A stretch of 64,000 bases of DNA from Raoultibacter sp. (lineage in GTDB: Bacteria > Actinomycetota > Coriobacteriia > Coriobacteriales > Eggerthellaceae), in NCBI GenBank assembly GCA_036651575.1, contig JAVVXN010000003.1:9766-73765 (forward strand). Reading direction: 5' to 3'. Below are positions 22,373-48,886 of the stretch, piece after piece. Below the pieces are notes generated by a model. That model had not been told where the DNA came from. It was given only the letters and a program-made list of their open reading frames with translations, and searched no databases. The position numbers were made by a program, and so were the translations under genes. The stretch's first letter is position 1. The number at the start of each line of letters is the position of its first letter.

Positions 22373-23500
22373 ATGGCGAACAAAAGCTTAGCGAAAAATC
22401 CTTCTGATTTGTGTGTGCTCGTTACGGGCGGTGCTGGTTTTATTGGAAGCCACACGTGCGTCGAGCTTTTGGAACAGGGATACCGCGTGGTGGTCGTCGA
22501 TAATCTGGGAAACTCAAGCGAGGAAGCGCTTGCGCGAGTGAGACGCATCACCGGAGTTGATGACGAGCGGCTTTCGTTTTATAAGGAAGATATCCTTGAT
22601 CGGGAAGCGCTGAATAGAATTTTCGATGAAAACGATATTGACGCGATGATTCACTTTGCGGGATTTAAAGCGGTTGGCGAAAGTATACAAAAACCTCTGG
22701 AGTACTACTGGAACAACATCACCGGAACGCTCGTTCTCTGTGAAGTTGCCCGCAGCCACGGGGTAAAAAATATCGTGTTTTCCAGCAGTGCAACCGTGTA
22801 TGGTAATCCCGAATTTGTGCCAATTACCGAAGAGTGCCCCAAGCATGAAGCGACGAATCCCTACGGGGAAACAAAGAATATGCTTGAGCGGATCTTGACC
22901 GATCTTTACGGCGGCGACGGTGAATGGAATATTATCTTTTTACGCTATTTTAATCCCATTGGAGCACATGAGAGCGGTCTGATCGGGGAAGATCCCAAGG
23001 GGATCCCCAACAATCTTATGCCCTATGTCGCGCAGGTTGCTTCGGGTAAGTTGGAATGCATCAAGGTATTGGGAGACGATTACCCGACCCCTGACGGTAC
23101 GGGAGTGCGCGACTACGTTCACGTGGTCGATTTGGCGCGGGGTCACGTAAGGGCGCTTGATTGGATGGGTGGAAAGTGTGGAGCAGAAAAAATAAGCGGC
23201 CCGGGATGTATTTCGGGTATTCCCGACGATGATGGCACCCGTCGCGGGGTGGGTATTTTTAATCTGGGAACCGGTACCGGATCGAGCGTATTCGATGTGA
23301 TTCACGCTTTTGAGCGGGTCTGCGGAAAAACGCTTCCCTATGAAGTGGTGTCTCGTCGTGCGGGGGATATCGCGTCGTGTTATGCGGCGTGTGAAAAAGC
23401 GCGAATTGAATTGGATTGGGTTGCCCGCTACGACCTTGAGCGTATGTGTACCGATGCGTGGCGTTGGCAATCAAATAATCCCAACGGCTATGAGGACTGA
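22373..23500 (+). CDS. galE: UDP-hexose 4-epimerase
   Basis: 'VTGGAGFIGSH', 'SSSATVYG' and 'NPYGETK'. A ~22-aa insertion precedes 'IFNLGTG' compared with E. coli GalE. Confidence 0.9.
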   Translation: MANKSLAKNPSDLCVLVTGGAGFIGSHTCVELLEQGYRVVVVDNLGNSSEEALARVRRITGVDDERLSFYKEDILDREALNRIFDENDIDAMIHFAGFKAVGESIQKPLEYYWNNITGTLVLCEVARSHGVKNIVFSSSATVYGNPEFVPITEECPKHEATNPYGETKNMLERILTDLYGGDGEWNIIFLRYFNPIGAHESGLIGEDPKGIPNNLMPYVAQVASGKLECIKVLGDDYPTPDGTGVRDYVHVVDLARGHVRALDWMGGKCGAEKISGPGCISGIPDDDGTRRGVGIFNLGTGTGSSVFDVIHAFERVCGKTLPYEVVSRRAGDIASCYAACEKARIELDWVARYDLERMCTDAWRWQSNNPNGYED

Positions 23501-24245
23501 GCGTGTGAACCAAAAAGTAAGGGGAGCGTGTCGTGTTTTGGTGATTGTGCCCGCGTATAATGAAGCGGGTAACATCCTTTCGACTCTTACTGATTTAAGG
23601 GAAAACACCGCCTATGATTGTCTGGTGGTCGATGATGGTTCAACCGATGAAACCTTGTTGCTCTGTCGGGAGTATGGCGTACCCGTTGTGAGCCTTCCGA
23701 TGAATCTTGGTATCGGGGGCGCGGTGCAGGCGGGGTATAAATACGCGTATCGAAACGCTTATGATGTTGCGGTTCAGTTTGATGGTGACGGCCAGCACGA
23801 TGCGACGTTTATCGTGTCTTTGGTTGCCGCTCTTGAAGATGAACATTTCAATATGGCGATTGGATCTCGATTTTCTTCTGATTTTGAAGATAATTTTAAA
23901 TCGACCCGGATGCGACGGGTCGGCATCAGGTGGTTATCGGGCGTCATTTATCTGTTTACACACCAGGTCATCACCGATCCTACCAGTGGTTTTAGAGCGG
24001 TGGATCGGGCGGTGATGAAGCTGTTTTGTGAGAGCTATCCCGTTGATTACCCCGAGCCGGAATCGGCGGTCGTGGTGCTTTCTCATGGTCTCAAAATAAA
24101 AGAAGTTGGGGTCATGATGAATGAACGTAAAAATGGGTTATCTTCCATCGGGTCGCTTTCGGCGATGTATTACATGGTCAAGGTTACCCTTGCGGTAATG
24201 ACGCAGAGCGCTTCGAGAGTAAGAGGGCATAAAAAATGTCTTTAG
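23490..24245 (+). CDS. soluble-type GT2 polyprenyl-phosphate sugar synthase (PpgS/DPM1-like)
   Basis: 'VIVPAYNEAGNI', 'VVDDGSTDET' and 'FDGDGQHD'. The start overlaps the end of galE (ATG 23490, or GTG 23505). A small membrane partner gene follows it. Confidence 0.8.
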   Translation: MRTERVNQKVRGACRVLVIVPAYNEAGNILSTLTDLRENTAYDCLVVDDGSTDETLLLCREYGVPVVSLPMNLGIGGAVQAGYKYAYRNAYDVAVQFDGDGQHDATFIVSLVAALEDEHFNMAIGSRFSSDFEDNFKSTRMRRVGIRWLSGVIYLFTHQVITDPTSGFRAVDRAVMKLFCESYPVDYPEPESAVVVLSHGLKIKEVGVMMNERKNGLSSIGSLSAMYYMVKVTLAVMTQSASRVRGHKKCL

Positions 24246-24589
24246 TGCTGAGATTGTTCATCGGTATTGTCTGTTTCTTTTTTTTGATATTTGTCTTAAT
24301 GATGATTAGGCGCGAACGATTTATTTTGAAATATGCGCTCGTTTGGCTTGTTGCGGGTGTGGTGGGTGTGGTCGTTGCTGTTTTCCCTGGTTTGGCTGAG
24401 GTGGTGTCGTCATTTTTTGGCTTCGAAACAACCTCGAATTTTATTTTCTTTCTCGTTCTCTGCTTCCTGCTTGCGGTTTGCCTGTCGTTAAGCGCTATCG
24501 TTTCAAAGCAATCGCTTCGCATTAAAGATTTGGTGCAAGAAATCGCCCTGTTAAATGTTCGGGATGAAAAATCCGAGAATGATCAATAG
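24236..24589 (+). CDS. small 3-4 TM membrane protein, DUF2304-like
   Basis: 117 aa. 'MMIRRERFILKYALVWL' matches my recollection of DUF2304. The start overlaps the GT2 stop, suggesting translational coupling. Confidence 0.6.
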   Translation: MSLVLRLFIGIVCFFFLIFVLMMIRRERFILKYALVWLVAGVVGVVVAVFPGLAEVVSSFFGFETTSNFIFFLVLCFLLAVCLSLSAIVSKQSLRIKDLVQEIALLNVRDEKSENDQ

Positions 24590-24660
24590 AGCGGGTTGAT
24601 CTAGGGCATCCGTTTTCTCTGGTGCGCGAACGCAAGTGGGTAAAAGCGGCATCCCGAAAT

Positions 24661-25044
24661 TTAGGCGAACACAACCTTTCGGTACAGGATAAAATTCCAG
24701 AGCGTTATGCAGACCATGGTGATCAGTTTGGCGATAATTGACATGAGACCGGCATCGATGAGCAGAGAAATCGTTATGGTTGAAAAAACGGTATTGAACG
24801 TGAAGAGAATCAGATAGAGCACGACGCTCTTGGCGGGATTCGAAGAGCTTTTGAACGCATACGTGCGGTTCATGAGGAAGTTGAATGTGGTGGCAACAAC
24901 AAGGGCGCTGATGTTGGAAAAAGCCACGGGCCAGCCAAACAACGCGTAGAGCAGTTGGAAGAGACAGAGTTCAAGGGCTGCAGATGAGCCACCGATAAGA
25001 AGGTATTTTATTCCCTGTTGCTTGATTGATTTGTAATCGACCAT
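24661..25044 (-). CDS. GtrA family membrane protein (second copy)
   Basis: 'IKYLLIGGSSAALELCLFQLLY' and 'WNFILYRKVVFA'. The start is refined to 'MVDYKS' (25044), which has an upstream AAGGGA RBS. Confidence 0.8.
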   Translation of the reverse strand: MVDYKSIKQQGIKYLLIGGSSAALELCLFQLLYALFGWPVAFSNISALVVATTFNFLMNRTYAFKSSSNPAKSVVLYLILFTFNTVFSTITISLLIDAGLMSIIAKLITMVCITLWNFILYRKVVFA

Positions 25045-25398
25045 GCCATCCCTTAGCTGCTGTGCGGCGGTGGTAAAACATGCCACTTGTGTTAGGTATC
25101 CGATTTGGATTTATAGACCATCATGATACCATCGGCCGCATCGGTTGCTGCGGCTTTTACGCGGGCTGCTCGGCGGGTTCCACAATATGGCTACACGGAC
25201 GCAGCAGGGGTTAAAGCGAGGGGGTTTGCCCTCCTTTTCGGTCGTGTCTCTTTACGGGTGGTTGTTTTTTCTTGTTCCTTTTGTTTGCTCGTCGGCGCGG
25301 TGGGGTATGATTGCCCTGCGTGCTGAAAAGCAGGCTTTATGTTTCCGGCTTTCTTGTATCGAAGAAAAAGAAGCTGGCGTGCGCTAACGGAGGGTTTC

Positions 25399-26346
25399 AT
25401 GGATTTATCGCTGATTGTGCCAGCTTATAACGAAGAAGGTAATATCCGACCGTTTTTTGATGCCGTGCAAGAGGCATTTTCCGGGCTGGATAAACGGTGT
25501 GAATTAATTTTTGTCGATGACGGCAGTGCGGATCAAACGGCGGAGGTAATGCGTTCGCTCCTCTCTCGACAAACAGACCGTCTCTCAATCAAAGTGGTTA
25601 TTTTTTCACGAAATTTTGGGAAGGAAGCGGCTTTGTATGCGGGGTTGCGCCATGCGGACGCCGATCTTGTCGGTTTTATCGATTCCGATCTGCAGCAGCT
25701 TCCCGAAACCGTTGTTGAGATGGTCCATATTTTAGATACGCATCCCGAATATGACTGCGTTGCTGCGTATCAACGTGATCGCAACCGGAGCGCCCTGATC
25801 GACTGGTGTTCAAAAGCTTTCTACAAGCTGCTGGGGGTTTCTTCCGGCATGACGGTTATTACCGACGCAAGTGATTTCAGGGTCTTTCGACGCACTGTCG
25901 CGCAAGCTCTGTTGTCGGTGGATGAGTGCTACCGTTTCTCGAAGGGTATATTTTCCTGGATCGGTTTTAATACGTATGCGTTTGCCTATACCCCGAGTTC
26001 TCGTTTTGAGGGAACGTCAACCTGGTCTTTCAGGAAGTTGGTACGCTATGCCTGGAACGGCTTGCTGTCGTTTACGGCCTTTCCCCTTAAGATAGCAACC
26101 TATTTGGGGTTTTTGGCCTTTGCCGCTTCCTCGATTTATCTGGTTGTGGTACTGACTCAGAGGATAATCTGGGGTGTTGACGTACCTGGTTATGCCACTA
26201 TCGTCGCTCTTATTTTGCTGCTCGGCGGCATCCAGCTTCTGGTGTTGGGGATTATCGGGGAATACTTGGCGCGCGTGTACACACAGGGCAAGCAGAGACC
26301 TCTATATATAGAGAAGGCCTATCTCGAGGGACCTGAGGACGAATAG
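25399..26346 (+). CDS. GtrB/CsbB-like GT2 polyprenyl-phosphate glycosyltransferase
   Basis: 'LSLIVPAYNEEGNI', 'FVDDGSADQT' and 'DSDLQ', plus two C-terminal TM helices. The RBS 'AACGGAGGG' precedes ATG 25399. Confidence 0.85.
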   Translation: MDLSLIVPAYNEEGNIRPFFDAVQEAFSGLDKRCELIFVDDGSADQTAEVMRSLLSRQTDRLSIKVVIFSRNFGKEAALYAGLRHADADLVGFIDSDLQQLPETVVEMVHILDTHPEYDCVAAYQRDRNRSALIDWCSKAFYKLLGVSSGMTVITDASDFRVFRRTVAQALLSVDECYRFSKGIFSWIGFNTYAFAYTPSSRFEGTSTWSFRKLVRYAWNGLLSFTAFPLKIATYLGFLAFAASSIYLVVVLTQRIIWGVDVPGYATIVALILLLGGIQLLVLGIIGEYLARVYTQGKQRPLYIEKAYLEGPEDE

Positions 26347-26372
26347 CTGATACGTGAAGCGCGCATCAGCTA
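26344..26372. other. hairpin between convergent GT2 and yfhO-like genes
   Basis: TAGCTGAT (26344-26351) pairs with ATCAGCTA (26365-26372) and spans both stop codons. Confidence 0.35.
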
Positions 26373-29164
26373 TTCGAAGCGGTGAGCTTACTTGTTGGGG
26401 GAGCGGGAGGGTTCCTTTTCCGACGCCATGCCGAAAAGCATGAGGTCGCGCCGATGCACAGGCCGGTGACAAGGGAAATCAGTGCTCCGGTGTTGAAGCT
26501 TTGGTTGGTATAGGTAAGCTCGACGGTGTGATCTCCCGGTTCCAAGTATATGCCGGTAAAAATATCATGCACAGAAATGGTGTCTTGCGCTTTGCCGTCG
26601 ACGATGCAGGTCCATCCGCGATTGTACGGTACGGAAAGCGATAAGATACCTACGGATTGATTATTGATCGTTCCTTTGATCTTGTTGTTGGTAATGGAGA
26701 GATTTTCGAGATTGTAAAGGTTTCTTTGGTCTGTCCATTGTTCGAGGTTTCGATACGAGCTGAACTGGAGCTTGGCGTTGCTGACCGTATAGGAACCCTC
26801 GCTGATACCGACGGTGATTTTTCCGGAAGCTTCCGGAGGGCAGAACGCATACGTGTCGGTCGGATATCCCCAGCGGAAGTCGTGAGCCGGGGACCAGTAT
26901 TGTTCGCCGTTTACAGACATCAAAAAAGAAGTTCCGTCCTGCTTGGTAGCCGTAAACGAAAGAAGGTATTCTCCGGCATCTGTTTGTGCAGAAAGGGGTA
27001 TGGTTATTGCTGCATCATCGTGATCTGCGACCAAGGTGCCATCGGCGAAAGAACAGTTTGAAAACGTGATGTTGCTGTTGGCGAGATCGATGGTTTGTAT
27101 TGTTTCTCTCAGGTCAATCGAGGCTTGGGGCAGGTGGGGAAGAGCGGCCGGGTCATCGATTGCCGCCGTCTGGAGGAGTGCCGCGTCTTTTTCTGCATAC
27201 GACCACGAATCGTAGGAACTTGACGGCGCAGACGAGTCATACCACAGGTCAATGCCGTTCGCGTATGTGTTTTCAAGAATGTCAGTGCCCTGAAACGAGG
27301 AGGGTTGATATCCATAGGTATTGCTGGTTTTATTCGTGTTGAATTTATAGCGCACGCCCCATGCATTTTCCAGGAAGAGACGGTGCCCGAATCCTTGATA
27401 GTATGACGCCGTTTTCGTTGTTGGAGTCACGCAATGGTCGATTTTGAGCCACCGGCTGATATCTTTCGATATCAGGGAATTATATGCGCTGACGGGGTAT
27501 GTTCCGAGCAGCCATGATCTGTTTTCGAATCGTTCCTCGAAACCATTGTCGTTGAAATTTCGAGACGTTTCTTCGTCGTTTGTGCGGAAGAATTCGTCGG
27601 GGGGCACGTTGAGGGTGCGATATGCCTGCTGGGTTGCTTCGTCTCCCTCGAAAAGTTGATTGAGTTCTTGGGAATCTTGCGTGGTTCCAATACCGACGTT
27701 GTTGCGAAACCCCGATGCTAGGGCGTAGGGGCCATAGGGCATAGCGATCAGCGTGGCGCATATGAAAGCGGTCAGCGCAGCGCCTTTGAGCAGTTTTATC
27801 CGGTGCGGTATCGTTGTTTTTTGTAGGAAGAATAGGCACGCGATGAAGGCAAACTGCAGAAAGAAAAACAGTAAGTCAGACACGCAAATTGGTGGAAAAT
27901 AATAGCTCCCGGCGCTCGATGCGTCGAGGACGCGATAGTCGTGCGTGGCGATACATACGGCCAGGACAACGCCGATTCCTCCAAGGACACATACGCGGAT
28001 TCTTTTTTGAGCAATAAGGGCTTCAAGCCAGTTGGGCAGGGCATAGGCGATGACGAAAAAGATGAGGTAGCACCACCGGTTTGAAAGGTAAGAAAAGCCA
28101 TTCATGACACTTGAAATGGCCGGAATCATCCAAAGGATGAGGAAGGTGACGGCAAGGATGGTCTTTCTTTTTGTGGGGGTGTCGACTTTCTTGAAATCAA
28201 TGAAAAAAACGAGAAGGACAACGAGGGGCAAAGCGTAGGTTTGCGACTCGGCGGCGAAAAAGGAACCTCCCTTGAAAAAAAGGATTTCAGGAAGGATTTT
28301 GAGAAATTCCAGAGAGGGAAGCAGGGTGAAAGATGAAGGAATTGGAGTGCGGTCGGCATTGAGAAAAGCCATGACCGAGGGGAAAAAAGCAACGGCTGCA
28401 AGCAAAATTGATACGATTACAATACCGGTGAGCCGCCCCAATTTTTTGACATAGATCAGGATGCTTCGAGAAGTTTTCCCCGGCAGTTTTTGGTATAAAA
28501 ACACCAAAGCAAATACGAGGTAGAACAAACAATTGATATACCCGAAGTAAAAGCTATTGGCAAAGCTGAAGGCAACTGCCACGCAGAGCGGAAGCCATGA
28601 GCGCGTCTTTTCATAGTGGTTAAACGCCATAATTACCAAAGGGGGCCAGATCATGGCATCGGTCATGAAGTCAAAGGCAAAGGAATTGTCGATAAACCAA
28701 AAAGAGCAGCCGTAGACGATTGCTGCGATACTGGCAGAAAAATCCGATTTGCGTTCTTGTTTCAGCAGGGCATACAGCAAGACCATGCAAAGTGTTTCTT
28801 TGACGATACTGAAGATGAGGCGCCATAGTTGCGTCGAATAAAAATCGCCCCCCGCTACACCGAAGAGTGCTTTTATGGCAAATTGGAGGTAGAAAAAAGG
28901 TGACGTTGAATAGTAGTATGAAAATTCCGAATACAGGTCACCCCCCAGTCCATATTCCCACGACCAAAACAGATTACCCGCAAGGATGTTTCTTTCAAGG
29001 AGTGAGATGGAAGGGATAAGCTGCGTGGTCGAGTCGCCGCCGAAGTAGGTGAACACCGCAGATTCGACTCCGAAAAATTGAGGAAGAAAAAGTGCATGCG
29101 AAGCAACTGCAAGCGCAAAGAACGCGACTATGGTCAATGCGGTGCGCACAACTTTGCTGTTCAT
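26366..29164 (-). CDS. YfhO family polytopic membrane protein (putative extracytoplasmic glycosyltransferase)
   Basis: ~930 aa with many N-terminal TM helices, a large C-terminal extracytoplasmic domain and a final TM helix. The start is set at 'MNSKVVRTAL' (29164). The upstream part of ORF ..29545 overlaps the divergent gene start and looks non-coding. Confidence 0.75.
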   Translation of the reverse strand: MNSKVVRTALTIVAFFALAVASHALFLPQFFGVESAVFTYFGGDSTTQLIPSISLLERNILAGNLFWSWEYGLGGDLYSEFSYYYSTSPFFYLQFAIKALFGVAGGDFYSTQLWRLIFSIVKETLCMVLLYALLKQERKSDFSASIAAIVYGCSFWFIDNSFAFDFMTDAMIWPPLVIMAFNHYEKTRSWLPLCVAVAFSFANSFYFGYINCLFYLVFALVFLYQKLPGKTSRSILIYVKKLGRLTGIVIVSILLAAVAFFPSVMAFLNADRTPIPSSFTLLPSLEFLKILPEILFFKGGSFFAAESQTYALPLVVLLVFFIDFKKVDTPTKRKTILAVTFLILWMIPAISSVMNGFSYLSNRWCYLIFFVIAYALPNWLEALIAQKRIRVCVLGGIGVVLAVCIATHDYRVLDASSAGSYYFPPICVSDLLFFFLQFAFIACLFFLQKTTIPHRIKLLKGAALTAFICATLIAMPYGPYALASGFRNNVGIGTTQDSQELNQLFEGDEATQQAYRTLNVPPDEFFRTNDEETSRNFNDNGFEERFENRSWLLGTYPVSAYNSLISKDISRWLKIDHCVTPTTKTASYYQGFGHRLFLENAWGVRYKFNTNKTSNTYGYQPSSFQGTDILENTYANGIDLWYDSSAPSSSYDSWSYAEKDAALLQTAAIDDPAALPHLPQASIDLRETIQTIDLANSNITFSNCSFADGTLVADHDDAAITIPLSAQTDAGEYLLSFTATKQDGTSFLMSVNGEQYWSPAHDFRWGYPTDTYAFCPPEASGKITVGISEGSYTVSNAKLQFSSYRNLEQWTDQRNLYNLENLSITNNKIKGTINNQSVGILSLSVPYNRGWTCIVDGKAQDTISVHDIFTGIYLEPGDHTVELTYTNQSFNTGALISLVTGLCIGATSCFSAWRRKRNPPAPPTSKLTASNS

Positions 29165-29465
29165 GGCCCTCCACGATCTTTCGAACCGATCTTGTCTTCG
29201 CTGGGTGCTAATGGATACAGACCAGGGTACCATAAAAGAAAACAGAGCCATCTTTATCTCTCTTATTCCATTAAGGCGTGTCCTCTGTGGGGTGTCTCGC
29301 CCTTGCGCTTGCGAGTCCGTACGCACGTGCGAGGAATTATTCCCAAGGATAGTCCTTGGATTTTTCCTGATAATGCCTCTGTGCTGCCGGTTTCCGATGG
29401 GGTAAGGAGATATCATGACGGGGTTCGAGCTTTGGTTGTGCAGCTCGCAAAAATGAGGAGGCACC

Positions 29466-31187
29466 ATGACTATTCGTGTTTTAGCCCGCGGGTCCCTGTC
29501 AATTTTTCTAGCAGCGTTGATGGTTGTTTTCTTTGCGTATCCCACACCGTCTGCGTGGGCTGTTGATAACGATCAAAAAAAATCAGCATCTGAAGAAGAG
29601 ATTGAACGTGCGTTTGATAACGGTGAAATAAAAACCGAGATTCCGCCCGCTTTACGCGAGCAAAGCCAAAACAGCATTCCTTTAGCCCGTTCTAATAAAG
29701 CAATTAAAACCCTTGCAGGAGAAAGCTTGTACGATACGGCTGCTGCCGAAGCACGCTATGCCTACAGCGCTTCTTCCTGGGCTATCGTTGCAAGCGGGGA
29801 AAGCAGCGTTGACGCTTTGGCGGCAACTTCGCTTGCCGGAGCACTTGACTGTCCTATTTTGCTGACGTCGAAAAGCTCGCTTCCCGCTGCTACCTCTGAT
29901 GCTTTGGCATCCCTTGGTGTGACCAACGTTATTATTACGGGTGGCGAAGGGGTGATTTCGGCATCGGTGGCAGATGAGATCAGCGCCCAGGTGGGTACGA
30001 GCCCCACCCGTCTGTTCGGTCAGGATCAATACGATACCCAGCTTGCGATCTACGCCTACGGGGCTGACCGGTCCCTGTGGGGATCTCAGGCGATCGTCGT
30101 TTCCGGTGTGGCGGGCCAATTCGCCGATGCACTTTCGGCAGCACCGGTGGCTTTCGCGCAAAAGGCGCCGATATTTTTCGTGGATGAGACCGGATCGTTG
30201 CCGAACAAGACTATTCAGACGCTTTATGCGGCAAGCACCCTTTCGTCTGCGGTTGCCGTGGGGGGCTCAGCTGTTGTGTCTGAGTGGACGATGGGAGCCC
30301 TTGAAGCCCTTGTTGTCAATCACGGGAGCGCTCGCTCAAACGTGGTGCGGCTTTCCGGCGAAACGCTCTACGATACCAGCTTGGAAGTTGCTTTTTGGGC
30401 GGTTGAAAACGCTATTTTATCCTGGGATAACGCGGCGTTTGCCACCGGGAAGATGCCCTATGATGCCCTCGCCGGCAGCGTGGTGCAAGGGCGCGATCGC
30501 TCGGTGCTTTTGTTGGCGGATCCTGGGTATCGCACGGCTTTCGATGTTTTAAGCAGGCACTCCGTGACAACTTATAAATACTTTGGGGGGAAAGCGGTGT
30601 TTAGAAACGCCGACAAAGTTTCGTACGCTTTAAAGCTTGGCTTTCCCCTGTCGGACATAGAAGGGCTTATCGTCTATCTCGATGCGGGGCATGGCTGGAA
30701 TAGTTCTAACAACGGTGTATTCGACTATGGAGCTTGGGGATGTGGCTACAACGAATATGATTTGAACGCTGAATTGACGGGTCAGATTGCACCGGCTCTG
30801 CGTAGCTGGTATGGCCTGGACGTATACGTCAACGATGATGGTGGCTACTATGCGTACCGTCAAAGTGAGGCGTACGCGATGGATTGCGGCGTGTTCGTGT
30901 CGATCCACTTCAATTCGGGTGGTGGCTCGGGGACGGAAAGCTATATCCATTCCTATAATGCCGCTCCCGGTGCATCCGTCTTGCAGTCGCGGGTTCATCC
31001 CGCCCTTATTTCCGGGGTTGGTCTTGGTGACCGCGGCATGAAGAATGAAGAATTTGCCGTATGCGGGGGAAAGGTGCCTGCTGTGTTGCTTGAGGTTGCC
31101 TTTATTGATAACCAAAATGACATGAATGCGTATCAGTCAAGAAAAGGTAATGTGGCCGGAAAAATCGCCGAAGGAATAGCATCGTAG
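29466..31187 (+). CDS. secreted N-acetylmuramoyl-L-alanine amidase with three CWB2 cell-wall-binding repeats
   Basis: Signal peptide '..PTPSAWA|VD'. CWB2-like repeats ('LAGESLYDTAAAEA..ASGESSVDALAATSLAG..CPILLT'). Amidase_3 motifs 'VSIHFNSGGGSGTESY' and 'LLEVAFIDN'. Confidence 0.85.
   Translation: MTIRVLARGSLSIFLAALMVVFFAYPTPSAWAVDNDQKKSASEEEIERAFDNGEIKTEIPPALREQSQNSIPLARSNKAIKTLAGESLYDTAAAEARYAYSASSWAIVASGESSVDALAATSLAGALDCPILLTSKSSLPAATSDALASLGVTNVIITGGEGVISASVADEISAQVGTSPTRLFGQDQYDTQLAIYAYGADRSLWGSQAIVVSGVAGQFADALSAAPVAFAQKAPIFFVDETGSLPNKTIQTLYAASTLSSAVAVGGSAVVSEWTMGALEALVVNHGSARSNVVRLSGETLYDTSLEVAFWAVENAILSWDNAAFATGKMPYDALAGSVVQGRDRSVLLLADPGYRTAFDVLSRHSVTTYKYFGGKAVFRNADKVSYALKLGFPLSDIEGLIVYLDAGHGWNSSNNGVFDYGAWGCGYNEYDLNAELTGQIAPALRSWYGLDVYVNDDGGYYAYRQSEAYAMDCGVFVSIHFNSGGGSGTESYIHSYNAAPGASVLQSRVHPALISGVGLGDRGMKNEEFAVCGGKVPAVLLEVAFIDNQNDMNAYQSRKGNVAGKIAEGIAS
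29709..30203 (+). repeat. 495-bp segment identical to 31565-32059 (copy 1)
   Basis: Boundaries found by direct comparison. The identical translations in several frames of the ORF track (for example the minus-strand ORFs starting 'MRESHRCCRK..') imply 100% DNA identity. Confidence 0.9.
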
Positions 31188-31219
31188 TGAAGAACAGTAA
31201 AAGAGAAGGTGGTCAATCG

Positions 31220-33277
31220 ATGAAGTCATATCGAATTACCGTATCCGTTTTATGCGCTTTCGTTTTGGTCTGTACTCCTCTTTCCGCTGCGCTTGCTCAA
31301 GATATTCAACCGGATGTTTCCGGGGGAAATATGACGGGGCTTGTTGGTGATACGGAGAGTTCAAAGCAGCAAGCCGATGAGGGGTCAGTGCCCGCTGTTG
31401 TACAGCAAGCTTCGGGAGAGCAGCTTGAGGGCAGTGCGGCGTCGAGCGTATCCGATGCCGAGATTGCCGAAACACTCGCTACGGCAGATATCGTGGGAGC
31501 ACATGAAGGGGCAGCAGCGGGTGTTGCGAGCACCCTTGACCTTTTGGCTTCGGCGGGAGTAACCACCCTTGCAGGAGAAAGCTTGTACGATACGGCTGCT
31601 GCCGAAGCACGCTATGCCTACAGCGCTTCTTCCTGGGCTATCGTTGCAAGCGGGGAAAGCAGCGTTGACGCTTTGGCGGCAACTTCGCTTGCCGGAGCAC
31701 TTGACTGTCCTATTTTGCTGACGTCGAAAAGCTCGCTTCCCGCTGCTACCTCTGATGCTTTGGCATCCCTTGGTGTGACCAACGTTATTATTACGGGTGG
31801 CGAAGGGGTGATTTCGGCATCGGTGGCAGATGAGATCAGCGCCCAGGTGGGTACGAGCCCCACCCGTCTGTTCGGTCAGGATCAATACGATACCCAGCTT
31901 GCGATCTACGCCTACGGGGCTGACCGGTCCCTGTGGGGATCTCAGGCGATCGTCGTTTCCGGTGTGGCGGGCCAATTCGCCGATGCACTTTCGGCAGCAC
32001 CGGTGGCTTTCGCGCAAAAGGCGCCGATATTTTTCGTGGATGAGACCGGATCGTTGCCGGATGCGACGATCCGGGTGCTTTTTGCGGCAGCGCCTCTTTC
32101 GTCTATGGTTGCCGTGGGGGGCTCAGCTGTTGTTGCCGAACGGACGATAGGCGCGCTTCAGGCGATCGTTGTTGCTCATGGGCACAGCCGCTCAAATGTT
32201 GTGCGTCTGTTCGGTAATAGCCTCTACGATACGAGCGCAAATGTGGCTGCCTGGGCGGTTGAAAACGCTATTTTATCCTGGGATAACGTGGCGTTTGCCA
32301 CCGGGAAGATGCCCTATGATGCCCTCGCTGGTAGCGTGGTACAGGGCCGGGATCGTTCGGTTTTACTGCTGGTGGACGAGGGGAGCATGCAGGGGCTTGA
32401 CGCCGTCGTGTCTTCCGGTGCCTCCATCTCCGGTTTGAAGTTTTTAGGGGGAACCTCGGTGGTGAAAGCTGAAACGCGTCGCAGTATTTGCTCTGCGTTA
32501 GGCCTGCCTTATCTGTCTGTCAGCTCGCTTTACCACGACATTTCCTTGGCGCAATTTGCCCAAATAGAATCGAGTGCATCAGGAAAATATACCGTTGATG
32601 AAATATTGAGCAGTATGGATCCTGCGCGTTTCGCGGAGGGTACTTCGGGTTTTTACCAATTTGCGGATTTATCGCAGGGCTATTCGGGGATGACAGCGGA
32701 TCAGCTCGATTCGTTTATCGACGCAAACGTTTCATATCAAGAGAAAAGAAATGGCGTGAGAAGCAAGCTGAGGGGTAGCGGTGCCTCCTTTATCGCCGCA
32801 GCGAAGAAGTATCAAATCAATGAGGTGTACCTGCTCGCTCATGCGGCTCTCGAGAGTGGATGGGGTTGTTCTGCGCTGGCTCAAGGAACCGTGAAAGGCT
32901 ATGAGGGTTATCTGAATTTCTACGGTATCGGCGCCTATGATCTCGATCCGAAGAATGGCGGGGCTGCCTTGGCAAAAGATCAGCAGTGGGATACTCCCGA
33001 AAAAGCCATCCTGGGTGCTGCCCGTTGGATATCGCGCAACTACATTCATCCCACCGTTGCCTCAGCGACTGTTTCCGGGCCGCAAAATACGCTGTGGCAG
33101 ATGAAGTGGGATGTTCGGCGTGCGGTTGCCGAGGGCGGTGTTTGGCATCAGTATGCGACGAGCAGAACGTGGGCGACCGGTATCGCTTCGGTTATGAACG
33201 ATTTTTACCGGCAGAGCAACCATTCTTTTGAAGAAACGGGTCTGTCTTTTATCGTCCCCGCTTTTGCGCAGCAGTAA
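31220..33277 (+). CDS. secreted N-acetylglucosaminidase (GH73-like) with CWB2 repeats
   Basis: Signal peptide '..LSAALA|QD', an acidic linker, CWB2 repeats, and a C-terminal 'LLAHAALESGWG..NFYGIGAYD' glucosaminidase motif. ATG 31220 follows the RBS 'GAAGGTGG'. Confidence 0.85.
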   Translation: MKSYRITVSVLCAFVLVCTPLSAALAQDIQPDVSGGNMTGLVGDTESSKQQADEGSVPAVVQQASGEQLEGSAASSVSDAEIAETLATADIVGAHEGAAAGVASTLDLLASAGVTTLAGESLYDTAAAEARYAYSASSWAIVASGESSVDALAATSLAGALDCPILLTSKSSLPAATSDALASLGVTNVIITGGEGVISASVADEISAQVGTSPTRLFGQDQYDTQLAIYAYGADRSLWGSQAIVVSGVAGQFADALSAAPVAFAQKAPIFFVDETGSLPDATIRVLFAAAPLSSMVAVGGSAVVAERTIGALQAIVVAHGHSRSNVVRLFGNSLYDTSANVAAWAVENAILSWDNVAFATGKMPYDALAGSVVQGRDRSVLLLVDEGSMQGLDAVVSSGASISGLKFLGGTSVVKAETRRSICSALGLPYLSVSSLYHDISLAQFAQIESSASGKYTVDEILSSMDPARFAEGTSGFYQFADLSQGYSGMTADQLDSFIDANVSYQEKRNGVRSKLRGSGASFIAAAKKYQINEVYLLAHAALESGWGCSALAQGTVKGYEGYLNFYGIGAYDLDPKNGGAALAKDQQWDTPEKAILGAARWISRNYIHPTVASATVSGPQNTLWQMKWDVRRAVAEGGVWHQYATSRTWATGIASVMNDFYRQSNHSFEETGLSFIVPAFAQQ
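31565..32059 (+). repeat. 495-bp segment identical to 29709-30203 (copy 2)
   Basis: Offset is 1856 bp. It encodes the same 165 aa ('TLAGESLYDT...FFVDETGSLP') in both hydrolase genes. A second, near-identical block lies at ~30397-30500 and ~32253-32356. Confidence 0.9.
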
Positions 33278-34925
33278 CCGTTTTGTGAGGGTAGGCGTGT
33301 CGGGCTGATTGTGCGTTCGGGCTCAAAAACGCCGTTGCTATCACAATGGGTAAGGCGAGATGGAAGGGCAACATGTAGCGGAACTCGCAGTAGTAGGGTG
33401 CTGCAACCAGCATGGTTGCCCAGAGGGCGATCAGGGGAACGTAGGGGAGTATCAATTCTTTTTGAGAGCGCATCCAGCGCACGAGAGCGAGACCTACTAC
33501 CAACCATACGGCTGCTGCAATGCTGAATAGAGGTGACACAAAGCTGCTCGTGCGCATGTTGCCGTAGTTGCTATCCTGATTCCCACCCACTATTGGTATC
33601 GGCGCCACTTCGTAGAGGAGGTTTCGGCCCTCCTCTTTCGTGATGCCGCTTGTGGTGACAACCCAATCCTGCGTCTCGATATTCCAGTATCCTTCGGTTT
33701 CTCTCAGCCACGCTTCGAAATAGGTTTTCGGATTCTCGAGTCCGATTTCAAGCCAGAGTTTCAGAAACTCTGGCTTGTGCGAATCGAGCCATTCGTCGTT
33801 GAAGGAAGGATCGTATTTAACGGGATTGGTGGATATTGGATTGTAGCGTTGAGCCATCTGGTCAAGGTCGACCAGATGGGCTAATTTTTCTTCCTGTTCC
33901 GGCGTCATCGACCCGTTGTTGGCTACGACGGCCGAGATCTGCTGCAGCGGAATCCCTACCGATTCCCTGAAAGGCGAAGGGGCGATGCTGCATGCGGTGA
34001 AGAGTGGTCCGGTAATTACTAAAACGACCGGAATGACGATCAGGAGGGGAATGAGTCGTTTGAGGTGACGGCGGTATACGACCGCCAGACAAAGTGCGCA
34101 TGCTGCCATAGCGAAAACGCCATTATTCCGCAGTAGACAGATAGCAAAGGCGAGTGCGGTAAGGCGTAGGCACGTTGTCGGTGATTCCAAAAGCCTTCCC
34201 TTGCTAAAGGCGATTTCAAAGAGTAAAAGAATAAACAAAAGCATACAGAGCGAAAACGGGATGTCTTTCCACATGGTGGTCGCGTATTTCGCAATAATTG
34301 GGTTAAAGGTGAAAAAGGCGAGGGTTGCAAGGGCGACCAAATCGGGTGCCCCCATTTTTTTGATCCAATAGCACGCGTATGCGCAGACAGCTGCCGTGAA
34401 GATGAGCTGGATAAACAGATACAGCGCGGTTCCTATCGCCACATTTCCCAGCGCGTTTCCGAGAATCACAAAGGGGGATATGAGCAGGGTGAACATGACC
34501 GGATGTGCATTCGACCAGGGCAGTTGGCCGAGTGCTATCTTGATCGAATCGACGCTGTCGCCGGAATAGGAGCCGGGAAAATTAACAAGAAAGGTGATAA
34601 AGAACGACAGAAATAAAACGGCAAAAGCGATGCCTCCTCTGTTTTTTGAAACCGCCGTTTCCGCAAAGGTGATTTGGTGCGTGTCAAGCCAATACGTCAC
34701 AAGGGTAAGTCCCGCGAAAAGAAGCAGGGAAAAGGCGCAAAACGACCAAAAGCACTCCGAAAAACCGGTGCCGTCAAGCCAGTGGCCCAAAACCCACGAA
34801 GCTGAAAGCAGGACGGAAAAAATCGCCAAGAGGGCGTAGTGTGCGGGCGTTGAAAAAACCCGACTCTTGATTTGTGCGAGAAAATTATGCGAAGCATCAT
34901 CGAGGCCAAAAGTTGTTTTGGACAT
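33249..34925 (-). CDS. uncharacterised polytopic membrane protein (DUF6020-like, possible GT-C-type enzyme)
   Basis: 558 aa, at least 10 hydrophobic helices, a ~150-aa hydrophilic loop ('PEQEEKLAHLVD...WNIETQDW') and 2 terminal TM helices. The family assignment is from memory only. Confidence 0.6.
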   Translation of the reverse strand: MSKTTFGLDDASHNFLAQIKSRVFSTPAHYALLAIFSVLLSASWVLGHWLDGTGFSECFWSFCAFSLLLFAGLTLVTYWLDTHQITFAETAVSKNRGGIAFAVLFLSFFITFLVNFPGSYSGDSVDSIKIALGQLPWSNAHPVMFTLLISPFVILGNALGNVAIGTALYLFIQLIFTAAVCAYACYWIKKMGAPDLVALATLAFFTFNPIIAKYATTMWKDIPFSLCMLLFILLLFEIAFSKGRLLESPTTCLRLTALAFAICLLRNNGVFAMAACALCLAVVYRRHLKRLIPLLIVIPVVLVITGPLFTACSIAPSPFRESVGIPLQQISAVVANNGSMTPEQEEKLAHLVDLDQMAQRYNPISTNPVKYDPSFNDEWLDSHKPEFLKLWLEIGLENPKTYFEAWLRETEGYWNIETQDWVVTTSGITKEEGRNLLYEVAPIPIVGGNQDSNYGNMRTSSFVSPLFSIAAAVWLVVGLALVRWMRSQKELILPYVPLIALWATMLVAAPYYCEFRYMLPFHLALPIVIATAFLSPNAQSARHAYPHKTVTAAQKRGR

Positions 34926-47356: not shown

Positions 47357-48886
47357 ATGGCGCGCTTTGAAAGTTCTATGAAAAACCTGGCGGTTGCCTG
47401 GGGAGGTCAGCTCGTGTCCGTTTTGCTGGCTTTTGTGGCACGCGGTGTTTTCGCACAACAGCTCAGTATGGAATATATGGGACTGGAGAATTTGTTTTCC
47501 AACGTATTGACCATTCTTTCTTTGGCCGATCTTGGGGTGGGCAGTGCGGTTGTTTTTTCGTTATATGAACCGTTGGCTAAAAACGATACGGAAAAAGTTA
47601 AATCTTTAATGCGCTTCTTTAAGCGCGCCTATATTACCATCGGTATTGTCATCGCTGCCATCGGTTTTGGGCTTACCCCGTTTATCGATCTTCTGATCGC
47701 GGATGCTCCCAACATTCCCAACCTCGGTGTTTACTTTCTTTGCTTTGTGCTCAATACGGCTGTTTCCTACTTCTTCTCCTATAAGGGCTCTTTGATATAC
47801 GCCGATCAGAAAAATTACATCGTCTCGCTGTTTCAATATTCTTTTCAAATCATTATGTGTATCGCGCAGATCGCGGTGCTGTTTCTCACTCACAGCTATC
47901 TTCTTTTCTTGCTGTGCATGATAGCGTCGACGGTGCTCCAAAATGTCGGTATTGCGCACAAGGCCAATATGATGTTTCCTTACTTGAAGGATAAAAACGT
48001 AGAGCCACTCGACAAGGGGACTTTGTCGCTGATCGTCAAAAATACGTTTGCGTTGGTTTTGCACAAGATCGCCGGCATCGCCAGCGTGCCTGCAAGCAGT
48101 TTGATTATCAGTAAATTTGCGGGCATCAACGCAATTGCTATCTACGGCAACTACATGCTGATCATTAATTCTTTGTCGCGGATACTCGATAAAACGTTTG
48201 ACGCGGTAACTGCCAGTGTGGGGAACTTGGGTGCGCAGGAGTCGGGCGAGCGGCAATACGAGGTATTTAAGATAAGTTTTTTTATCAATGCTTTTTTGTA
48301 TACCGTCGTTTGTTCGGTTTTGTTTTGCTGCTTCAATCCCCTGGTTTTTCTGTGGCTCGGGCAGGATTACCTGTTTCCAACGCTCACGGTTTGTCTTTTG
48401 ACGATATGGCTCTACGTTAAGGGTATGCGTTCTGCAGAACAATCATTCACCTCGGCATATGGGCTCTACTGGTTTTCTTGGTACAAAGCCGTTGTTGAAA
48501 CTATCAGCTTGCTGGGGCTCTCGCTTGCCCTTGTCCAGGTTGCGGGTATTGACGGCGTTATTCTTTCCGGCGTCGTGTCTTTGCTGCTGATCGCTACGAC
48601 TATGGAAGTGTGGGTACTCTACAAGCATGGATTTAAAAGAAGTCCGAAAGACTATTTTATAAAATTGGGCATCTATTCGCTGTTGACTCTTATCCTGACT
48701 TCTTTATCGTATTGTGCGTGCATGCTCATTCCCGGTTCAGGGGTGATTTCATTGCTGCTGAAGGGGGTTGTTTCTCTGACGATAGCAATGGGGGGATTTT
48801 GTCTTGTATTCAGGAAAAGTCACGAGTTTTCCGAGTTTGTAATCTTGCTGCATCGGGCATGTTCCCTGGTTAAGCGAAAGAAATAG
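47357..48886 (+). CDS. wzx: Wzx-type (MOP superfamily) oligosaccharide flippase
   Basis: 509 aa with about 12-14 TM helices. The N-terminal sequence 'NLAVAWGGQLVSVLLAFVARGVF' is typical of polysaccharide flippases. Confidence 0.75.
   Translation: MARFESSMKNLAVAWGGQLVSVLLAFVARGVFAQQLSMEYMGLENLFSNVLTILSLADLGVGSAVVFSLYEPLAKNDTEKVKSLMRFFKRAYITIGIVIAAIGFGLTPFIDLLIADAPNIPNLGVYFLCFVLNTAVSYFFSYKGSLIYADQKNYIVSLFQYSFQIIMCIAQIAVLFLTHSYLLFLLCMIASTVLQNVGIAHKANMMFPYLKDKNVEPLDKGTLSLIVKNTFALVLHKIAGIASVPASSLIISKFAGINAIAIYGNYMLIINSLSRILDKTFDAVTASVGNLGAQESGERQYEVFKISFFINAFLYTVVCSVLFCCFNPLVFLWLGQDYLFPTLTVCLLTIWLYVKGMRSAEQSFTSAYGLYWFSWYKAVVETISLLGLSLALVQVAGIDGVILSGVVSLLLIATTMEVWVLYKHGFKRSPKDYFIKLGIYSLLTLILTSLSYCACMLIPGSGVISLLLKGVVSLTIAMGGFCLVFRKSHEFSEFVILLHRACSLVKRKK

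Follow-up and report, generated by a model that had tools for sequence, protein, structure and literature searches.

Proteins that carry CWB2 repeats are best described from Clostridioides difficile, where the repeats bind the wall polymer PSII (reviewed in PMC5817068), where there are 29 such proteins (PMC5817068), and where the wall-glycopolymer locus has cwp genes within it or next to it (PMC5065235). We have analysed two adjacent genes with this kind of anchor from an uncultured gut actinobacterium. The window, by which we mean the whole stretch of 64,000 nucleotides from contig JAVVXN010000003.1 of assembly GCA_036651575.1 (Raoultibacter sp., Eggerthellaceae, Coriobacteriia), encodes an amidase and a glucosaminidase, each secreted and each with three CWB2 repeats, inside a glycopolymer locus. 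On balance we favour the view that the two genes form an autolysin operon whose CWB2 anchors would sit on the wall polymer of the local locus, and that the two enzymes would act jointly.

The closest counterpart of the amidase is C. difficile Cwp6 (5J72), its top PDB match and its best match by both sequence and fold. Cwp6 has the same architecture, three CWB2 repeats and a C-terminal Amidase_3 domain, and the amidase shows each testable defining feature of a Cwp6-type CWB2 protein, as the glucosaminidase does for a GH73 enzyme. However, the two are only about 24% identical, and one comes from a Firmicute while the other comes from a member of the Coriobacteriia. The partner is also different, since the amidase of the window is paired with a CWB2-GH73 glucosaminidase, unlike in the Cwp6 system. 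The source assembly of the window (G000 in our set) is a metagenome-assembled genome (MAG) of 1.57 Mb in 88 contigs that is 84% complete, so absences there are provisional. It has three CWB2 proteins against the 29 of C. difficile, and no S-layer protein was identified in it. The locus is not the same either. It holds LicD, CDP-ribitol genes and YfhO, and it is without an LCP ligase or an initiating transferase of its own. A PSII-type locus has its own initiating transferase, an MviN-type flippase, a polymerase and LCP ligases; from that list the window offers a Wzy polymerase and a tentative flippase candidate. It does share the placement of CWB2 protein genes beside or inside the polymer locus. 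Judged by gene content, the polymer is not PSII-like and is predicted to be Wzy-polymerised, with LicD and CDP-ribitol genes.

Three other systems are worth comparing. CWB2 was first defined in Bacillus subtilis CwlB, also called LytC (PMC5817068). LytC and LytD of that species are, like our pair, an amidase and a glucosaminidase, and they are a major vegetative pair. The B. subtilis autolysin genes adjoin teichoic-acid genes, which is a further likeness, but LytD is not known to use CWB2, nor are its gene and that of LytC known as a tandem pair homogenising a shared anchor. The closest functional analogue is pneumococcal LytA (amidase) and LytB (GH73), which share one non-covalent anchor as our two enzymes would; LytB also matches our GH73 domain by sequence (4Q2W). 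The target of the pneumococcal anchor is choline, the LicD decoration of a ribitol-phosphate teichoic acid of Wzy type, in a pathway with LicD, TarI/TarJ and a flippase and polymerase. That anchor is CWB1, the choline-binding repeats of PF01473, for which neither window protein has a match at E <= 0.01, so this pair is an analogue and not a family member. The lytA and lytB genes are not known to lie in the pneumococcal teichoic-acid locus. Finally, Staphylococcus aureus Atl, AtlE and SagB have the closest solved GH73 domains, with the catalytic Glu and YAT motifs conserved. Atl unites amidase and glucosaminidase for cell separation, but in one polyprotein with R repeats; SagB is membrane-tethered, and neither Atl nor SagB has CWB2.

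An evolutionary precedent comes from the Peptostreptococcaceae, where the CWB2 or SLH anchors of wall proteins, hydrolases included, are swapped along with secondary wall-polymer genes (bioRxiv 10.1101/2025.04.02.646754). Those swaps are between anchor types and in Firmicutes. In the window and its relatives the anchor stays CWB2, whole hydrolase alleles change, and conversion homogenises the anchors. A term search of that preprint found neither Coriobacteriia nor gene conversion mentioned. Among the papers that our searches covered, we found none linking CWB2 with the Eggerthellaceae and none describing conversion between autolysin anchors.

Two hydrolases with one kind of anchor

The features of the pair are as follows.

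29466-31187, + strand: amidase gene, 573 aa, secreted protein with three CWB2 repeats and an Amidase_3 N-acetylmuramoyl-L-alanine amidase domain (Pfam)
About residues 1-32 of the amidase, + strand: signal peptide (inspection and hydropathy)
29712-29969, 30009-30284 and 30348-30602, + strand: CWB2 repeats of the amidase (Pfam)
30672-31181, + strand: Amidase_3 domain (Pfam)
31220-33277, + strand: glucosaminidase gene, 685 aa, secreted protein with three CWB2 repeats and a GH73 N-acetylglucosaminidase domain (Pfam, start by ribosome-binding site)
31568-31825, 31865-32143 and 32204-32473, + strand: CWB2 repeats of the glucosaminidase (Pfam)
32786-33208, + strand: GH73 core (Pfam)
29180-29465, no strand: divergent intergenic region from the yfhO start to the amidase start (sequence read)

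A first-pass annotation of this stretch, made from the letters alone, had called signal peptides, CWB2 repeats, an Amidase_3 domain and a GH73 domain, and all of these calls are borne out by Pfam, by the motif it quoted and by hydropathy. The motif, GESLYDTAAAEA...DALAATSLAG..CPILLT, is found in both proteins. PF04122 (CW_binding_2) matches three stretches of the amidase (E 5.8e-37 and 126.5 bits are the corresponding figures for the three repeats of the glucosaminidase; for the amidase they are E 9.8e-37 and 125.8 bits). The gathering cut-off is 24.9 bits, so the first-pass proposal survives the hidden Markov model search that it had named as a way to refute it. In the genome scan each of the six repeats scores above that cut-off on its own. 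The catalytic domains are as clear, with PF01520 (Amidase_3) at residues 403-572 of the amidase (E 1.2e-21, 78 bits, cut-off 27 bits) and PF01832 (Glucosaminidase) in its partner (E 3.1e-14, 54.1 bits, cut-off 30.2 bits). Both signal peptides have a basic N-terminus and a single hydrophobic segment, with AWA|V or ALA|Q after it, by inspection and hydropathy, and hydropathy finds no further segment typical of a membrane protein in either hydrolase.

The catalytic residues of both enzymes are intact by alignment. The GHG, E, SIH(F/Y)N and E(V/C)AFIDN positions of the amidase align to Cwp6 (5J72). They correspond to H409 in GHG, E430, H481 in SIHFN and E543 in LLEVAFIDN, which we take to be the His-Glu-His zinc ligands and the catalytic Glu; among 36 amidase homologues the first three are invariant and E543 is nearly so. 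The GH73 domain matches SagB (6FXP/6U0O, E 4e-29), AtlE (4PI7) and the Atl glucosaminidase (6FXO) over a range of E 4e-29 to 9e-24. Its motifs align to those of SagB, HAALESGWG to HALLETGAV and HQYATS to HQYATD. Both the ALESG Glu and the YAT motif are thus conserved, and from what is known of the family we presume that this Glu is the catalytic residue and that the tyrosine of YAT(D/S) has its usual role. We considered whether the protein is SagB proper and rejected this, because the NCBIfam SagB match (E 7e-38) scores 130 bits where the exception-level cut-off is 425, and because the protein lacks a membrane tether.

The fold of the amidase agrees with its sequence. An AlphaFold2 model built on the alignment of homologues has a pLDDT of 91.2 and a pTM of 0.87. 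Foldseek matches its anchor to Cwp6 (E 6e-32), to Cwp8 (root-mean-square deviation 3.3 A over 335 columns) and to the high-molecular-weight subunits of SlpA (E 1e-14 to 5e-18), and its C-terminal domain to CwlV-type amidases. In the model, then, the CWB2 trimer of the amidase (about residues 79-395) folds like the triangular wall anchor of Cwp6 and Cwp8 (5J6Q).

The two genes are separated by 32 nt, and there is a ribosome-binding site within the gap. The longest open reading frame of the glucosaminidase (31187-33277, + strand) would begin at GTG 31187 and give 696 aa. We believe ATG 31220 is most likely the true start because the ribosome-binding site GAAGGTGG lies 8 nt upstream of it; public gene calls also have a length of 685 aa. 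The amidase has its own ribosome-binding site, GAGGAGG, 5 nt upstream of ATG 29466. Scans for terminators and promoters gave no more sites than shuffled sequences, and none between the two genes, which we think are probably co-transcribed. A consensus promoter scan of the yfhO-amidase intergenic region likewise gave nothing above shuffles; a promoter presumably lies there.

The pair supplies the sole Amidase_3 gene and the sole GH73 gene detected in the assembly. As for other wall hydrolase families, NlpC/P60 is represented by one gene, and no Amidase_2 gene was found. The first-pass annotation had suggested counting the CWB2 proteins elsewhere in the genome, and there is one more, a Peptidase_S8 protein with three CWB2 repeats on contig C57, whose CWB2 module is about 35-37% identical to those of the hydrolases. 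It had also proposed that the pair forms a dedicated cell-separation module. We find this plausible, given that no other Amidase_3 or GH73 gene was found, that the two genes are probably co-transcribed, and that their products share one anchor.

One further element recurs in both enzymes and in homologues from other genera. It is a short acidic helix motif, [ST]xEEIxxA, that follows the signal peptide and precedes the CWB2 module, at 29586-29645 (amidase residues 41-60) and at 31450-31480 (SDAEIAETLA in the glucosaminidase). E45 of this motif is invariant in the 36 amidase homologues, and ITDEEI variants occur in many GH73 linkers. Its pLDDT is 92-94 in the AlphaFold2 model, where the surroundings are of low confidence. 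It could be a docking or propeptide element.

Gene conversion between the anchors

The anchors of the amidase and the glucosaminidase are 81% identical as proteins, and this identity is very unevenly spread. The borders below were read from a 30-nt identity profile.

29709-30203, + strand: conversion tract, copy 1, 495 nt identical to 31565-32059, covering CWB2 repeat 1 and about 70% of repeat 2
31565-32059, + strand: conversion tract, copy 2, 495 nt identical to 29709-30203
30410-30470, + strand: short patch, 97-100% identical to 32266-32326, the core of CWB2 repeat 3

Between the 495-nt tract and the repeat-3 patch are about 200 nt at an identity of only 63-83%.

Perfect identity in a fragmented MAG might be taken for an artefact of assembly or binning, and Amidase_3 and GH73 domains are common in endolysins, so it could also be asked whether the pair is a lysis cassette of a prophage or other mobile element. 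We regard both ideas as extremely improbable. A second MAG of the species, assembled independently (GCA_036653815.1), differs from the window at 19 of 9722 positions (99.8% identity over 9.7 kb), and it carries the 495-nt tract with zero differences within either copy. Genomes that are closed or nearly so show such tracts as well, of 902 nt (1 mismatch) in G120, 827 nt (1 mismatch) in G042 and 510 nt (perfect) in G171. The proteins have signal peptides, there are no flanking phage genes, and the chromosomal neighbourhood of the pair is conserved across genera. These observations contradict the endolysin and artefact readings, and we reject them.

Not every pair is in this state. The pairs of G002, G132, G136 and G161 have drifted to 62-72% identity or less. 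The tree of 43 CWB2 modules nevertheless places the amidase and glucosaminidase modules as sisters within each genome in G000, G002, G171, G120, G132, G137 and G136, with support of 99/94 in G002 and 100/99 or 100/100 in the other six. The pair of G042 is also a sister pair, at a weaker support of 86/74, within the clade of G042 and G099 that is starred in our tree. Forcing the ten amidase modules into one clade, as orthology would have it, makes the tree 1223 log-likelihood units worse (approximately unbiased test, p-AU 2.9e-7). The CWB2 modules of other proteins, S8 peptidases among them, group mostly by protein type and not by genome. The tracts in closed genomes and the rejection of the orthology tree lead us to regard gene conversion between the anchors as real and recurrent and, from these sequence comparisons, as widespread in the Eggerthellaceae.

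G115 was excluded from this tree because its gene has an in-frame TAA. The stop lies inside a GH73-CWB2 gene (G115:C1:7270-9123, locus L143), which may be a pseudogene or reflect a sequencing error.

Variation of the pair across the Eggerthellaceae

The organism of the window was placed in the Eggerthellaceae, and the closest public genomes are MAGs labelled Raoultibacter sp. Obg is 92-94% identical to that of G000 within the genus and 65-79% identical in other genera. Of the 201 Eggerthellaceae genomes searched, 67 gave matches at E <= 1e-20, and about 25 of these have a full-length GH73-CWB2 protein. The tandem amidase and GH73 pair is present in 10 genomes from at least 7 genera, and its neighbours there are almost always glycosylation genes. 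Amidase homologues of the same architecture are numerous in the Coriobacteriia (Eggerthella lenta, E. guodeyinii, Raoultibacter phocaeensis, Senegalimassilia, Olsenella), and their only public name is 'cell wall-binding repeat-containing protein'. At the high-GC loci of G162, G090 and G058 greedy calling of open reading frames displaced the hydrolase genes with wrong-frame ones, so these three were counted for neighbour homology only and excluded from the trees.

The neighbours of the pair recur with it. Homologues of the window's glycosylation genes (GT2s, YfhO, DUF2304, DUF6020, LicD and epimerases) lie within +/-10 kb of the GH73-CWB2 locus in 17 of 21 other genomes, representing 11 genera. 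By comparison, 8% of 20-kb windows elsewhere in G000 hold such a homologue, a background that comes from one genome, and the compared genomes are kin.

The comparison with the congeneric genome G002 is the most informative. There polA, obg, proB and further downstream genes are syntenic with those of G000 at 67-92% identity (Obg 92%, PolA 79%, ProB 83%). Upstream the glycan genes have been replaced, with weak GT2, LicD and DUF6020 similarity remaining. A hydrolase pair is found at the same place, but its two members are only 45% and 44% identical to those of G000; by part, the figures are 43% for the anchor, 55% for the amidase domain and 47% for the GH73 domain. The phylogenies say the same thing. 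The amidase domain of G000 groups with that of G171 (support 95/98), its CWB2 modules fall in a 97/97 clade with G171, G196, G016 and G070, and the grouping of its GH73 domain with G196 and G016 is less firm (88/93). The hydrolase genes of G002 group instead with G161, G091 and G120. G171, which shares the lineage of the window, is Eggerthella guodeyinii, and the Raoultibacter genomes G099 and G042 (R. massiliensis or R. phocaeensis) belong to the other lineage. Trees that unite G000 with G002 are rejected in each case, with a p-AU of 1.9e-4 for the anchors, 9e-39 for the GH73 domain and 2e-42 for the amidase domain. Across the family GH73-CWB2 proteins are 41-56% identical to that of G000, however close or distant the genomes are.

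Our reading of these sequence comparisons is that the chromosomal site is conserved, that the glycan cassette it holds varies, and that the autolysins belong to this cassette. A different explanation must be weighed here. The CWB2 repeats may bind a conserved wall component such as peptidoglycan, or a polymer made elsewhere, and the adjacency would then reflect inherited gene order near polA-obg together with the fast evolution of surface proteins. An inherited position fits the finding that the pair lies 17-53 kb from obg in several genera (G000, G002, G120, G171, G042, G099 and G137). The S8-CWB2 protein, which is encoded elsewhere, is also fast-diverging, at only 54% identity between G000 and G002. 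It is important to realize what this figure means: fast evolution is general among these surface proteins, and divergence alone does not show that the anchors track their ligand. However, drift does not explain why the anchor and catalytic parts come from different lineages in two congeneric species with syntenic flanks, which points to replacement along with the cassette. Adjacency to glycosylation genes in 11 genera also argues against a conserved ligand, as does the fact that no other polymerase-type locus was detected in the assembly. We consider this explanation unlikely, though it is the most serious of the alternatives.

Larger relatives add further enzymes with three CWB2 repeats to the cluster, namely an L,D-transpeptidase (YkuD), an NlpC/P60 endopeptidase, a Peptidase_C39_2-like protein and a protein with a fervidolysin-type prodomain. 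Such enlarged clusters are found at 7271-17195 of L127 (G196), 8401-13281 of L146 (G171) and 6973-8643 of L137 (G120). Beside these relatives G000 has a minimal set of CWB2 enzymes.

The surrounding locus and the proposed ligand of the anchors

The pair lies between a YfhO gene and the gene for a DUF6020 membrane glycosyltransferase, within the following features.

19867-51456, no strand: whole glycopolymer locus (Pfam/NCBIfam)
23310-26346, no strand: lipid-carrier glycosylation genes (Pfam/NCBIfam)
23310-24245, + strand: GT2
24236-24589, + strand: DUF2304
24661-25086, - strand: GtrA-family gene
25339-26346, + strand: PgfS/CsbB-like GT2
26366-29179, - strand: YfhO-family GT-C glycosyltransferase (PF09586, E 5.6e-100), divergent from the pair
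33249-34925, - strand: DUF6020 polytopic membrane protein (PF19484, E 2.9e-44; hydropathy), convergent with the glucosaminidase

Upstream of the pair are a GtrA-family gene, a PglF/CapD-like dehydratase, an epimerase, the GT2 and DUF2304 genes, a second GtrA, the PgfS/CsbB-like GT2 and YfhO. Downstream, after DUF6020, come a GT2, LicD, TarI/TarJ-like genes, Wzy, Wzz and a second LicD with a class-V aminotransferase and a cytidylyltransferase fusion, then GT2/GT1 genes and a polytopic Wzx candidate; polA and obg follow the locus on its downstream side. The first-pass annotation had put the pair between glycosylation genes and Wzx/Wzy genes. The flanks and Wzy are as it described, and Wzy (PF14296, E 9e-81) is the only PF14296 polymerase in the assembly. 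Wzx is more doubtful: the candidate at 47357-48886 is a polytopic protein of 509 aa with no Pfam match and a sub-threshold match to NCBIfam WZX_like (E 1.9e-5, 23.9 bits against 300). No TagF-type polymerase (PF04464) was found in the assembly.

The DUF6020 gene and the glucosaminidase gene overlap at their 3' ends by 29 nt (33249-33277) with no terminator-like site, and convergent transcription could couple their expression. The GT2 and DUF2304 genes at 23310-24589 recur in that order beside CWB2 hydrolases in G002, G196, G090 and G115 (loci L010, L127, L132 and L143), at 42-53% identity for GT2 and 32-46% for DUF2304.

The presence of YfhO next to the pair raises another possibility, which is that the PgfS-like GT2, the PgfM-like YfhO and DUF6020 glycosylate the hydrolases themselves, on the acidic Ser/Thr-rich N-terminal linkers. 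This would explain the neighbourhood. The Pgf system of Streptococcus mutans glycosylates surface adhesins, and Acm2, a GH73 autolysin of Lactiplantibacillus plantarum, is O-glycosylated. The best named NCBIfam relatives of two of the neighbours are indeed PgfS (E 4e-70) and PgfM1/PgfM2 (E 1e-16 to 8e-23), all of them under the curated cut-offs. A YfhO homologue directly adjoins the GH73-CWB2 gene in G016, G070, G189, G150 and G196; in G196 a block of YfhO (-), CWB2 enzymes (+) and DUF6020 (-) is 47-62% identical to the window, its DUF6020 being 51% identical. The glucosaminidase linkers are acidic, 35-140 aa long and 15-30% Ser+Thr. These linkers do not, however, differ in length or Ser/Thr content with or without an adjacent YfhO, and most pairs have no YfhO nearby (G002, G171, G042, G099, G120, G136 and G161). 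The linker of the amidase is short and partly helical in the AlphaFold2 model, and YfhO/CsbB-type systems are best known for the glycosylation of teichoic acids. We find linker glycosylation improbable as the reason for the neighbourhood.

The explanation we prefer, that this is the main autolysin operon of the cell and that its products are anchored on the polymer of its own locus, can be put as a series of steps. The CWB2 trimers would hold both enzymes non-covalently on a secondary cell-wall glycopolymer. That polymer would be built or decorated by the surrounding locus, being Wzy-polymerised, decorated by ribitol-phosphate and LicD, and modified by YfhO and DUF6020, and LCP ligases encoded elsewhere would attach it to peptidoglycan. 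Because they share the CWB2 anchor, the amidase and the glucosaminidase would be positioned on the same wall sites and may split the septum and turn over the wall together. Since an anchor has to suit its polymer, the pair would be passed on, and exchanged, with the rest of the variable glycopolymer cassette, and conversion would keep the two anchors matched. We infer the ligand because of the PSII precedent in C. difficile and the anchor swaps of the Peptostreptococcaceae, and we infer in the same way the attachment of the polymer to the wall, the co-transcription of the genes and their physiological role.

The first-pass annotation had claimed that the polymer made by this locus is the CWB2 ligand, and the comparative data support this without proving it. 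In favour are the 17 of 21 loci with glycosylation neighbours against a background of 8%, the co-replacement seen in G002, the presence of a single Wzy locus and no TagF-type gene, and the precedents just named. Several points weigh on the other side, and most would suit a conserved ligand as well. There is no LCP ligase in the window, and the three LCP genes of G000 are on other contigs, so attachment of the local polymer to the wall is an assumption of ours. There is no priming phosphoglycosyl transferase (Bac_transf) in the window either; two PglC-like genes, each adjoining a DegT aminotransferase gene, are on C8 and C63. Two more modules of YfhO and GT2 are encoded on C2 and C29. The third CWB2 protein, Peptidase_S8, is encoded outside the locus, on C57. 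No single gene co-distributes cleanly with CWB2: among 40 relatives PF14296 Wzy occurs in 3 genomes, 1 of them CWB2-positive, and DUF6020 is weakly enriched, being found in 7 of the 9 genomes that are strongly CWB2-positive and in 10 of the other 31, these genomes being kin. Last, conversion between adjacent paralogues requires no selection.

Some genes outside the window deserve mention. The additional modules of YfhO and PgfS/CsbB-like GT2 are at C2:3734-6948 and C29:7213-11886, giving this small genome three lipid-carrier-dependent extracytoplasmic glycosylation systems. A phosphonate cassette at C63:859-6920 holds a fusion of phosphoenolpyruvate mutase and cytidylyltransferase, a thiamine pyrophosphate-dependent decarboxylase and a class-V aminotransferase, and it adjoins a PglC-like priming transferase and a DegT-like gene; C8:13133-14961 is the second pair of DegT and PglC-like genes. 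For the LicD cassette of the window, the genes on C63 and C8 may provide a phosphonate head group and the initiation step that the window lacks.

A wider reading is possible, which we offer tentatively and hold with less confidence than the local one. In the Eggerthellaceae, and perhaps in the Coriobacteriia generally, the locus near polA-obg may be a serotype-like cassette with matched autolysins, in which the specificity of CWB2 is tuned to each variant of the polymer. The hydrolases, and in larger genomes also the L,D-transpeptidase, NlpC/P60 and C39-like enzymes with CWB2, would be exchanged with the cassette, and selection as well as proximity would keep conversion going, so that every wall enzyme recognises one polymer. 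If so, nature has provided an allelic series for working out the recognition code between CWB2 and glycans. The Eggerthellaceae (Eggerthella, Gordonibacter, Slackia, Raoultibacter) are gut bacteria that metabolise drugs and polyphenols, and their envelope is almost unstudied. If the anchors do match the cassette polymers, CWB2 modules would offer ready-made probes, specific to a lineage, with which these bacteria could be labelled, sorted or lysed, the polymer locus would be a candidate determinant of phage and immune recognition, and the rules of CWB2-glycan binding, so far tied only to PSII of C. difficile, would become testable outside the Firmicutes. Taken by itself the locus is an ordinary autolysin operon; what this work adds is evidence, drawn from across the family, that autolysin alleles in gut Coriobacteriia are linked to the cassette.

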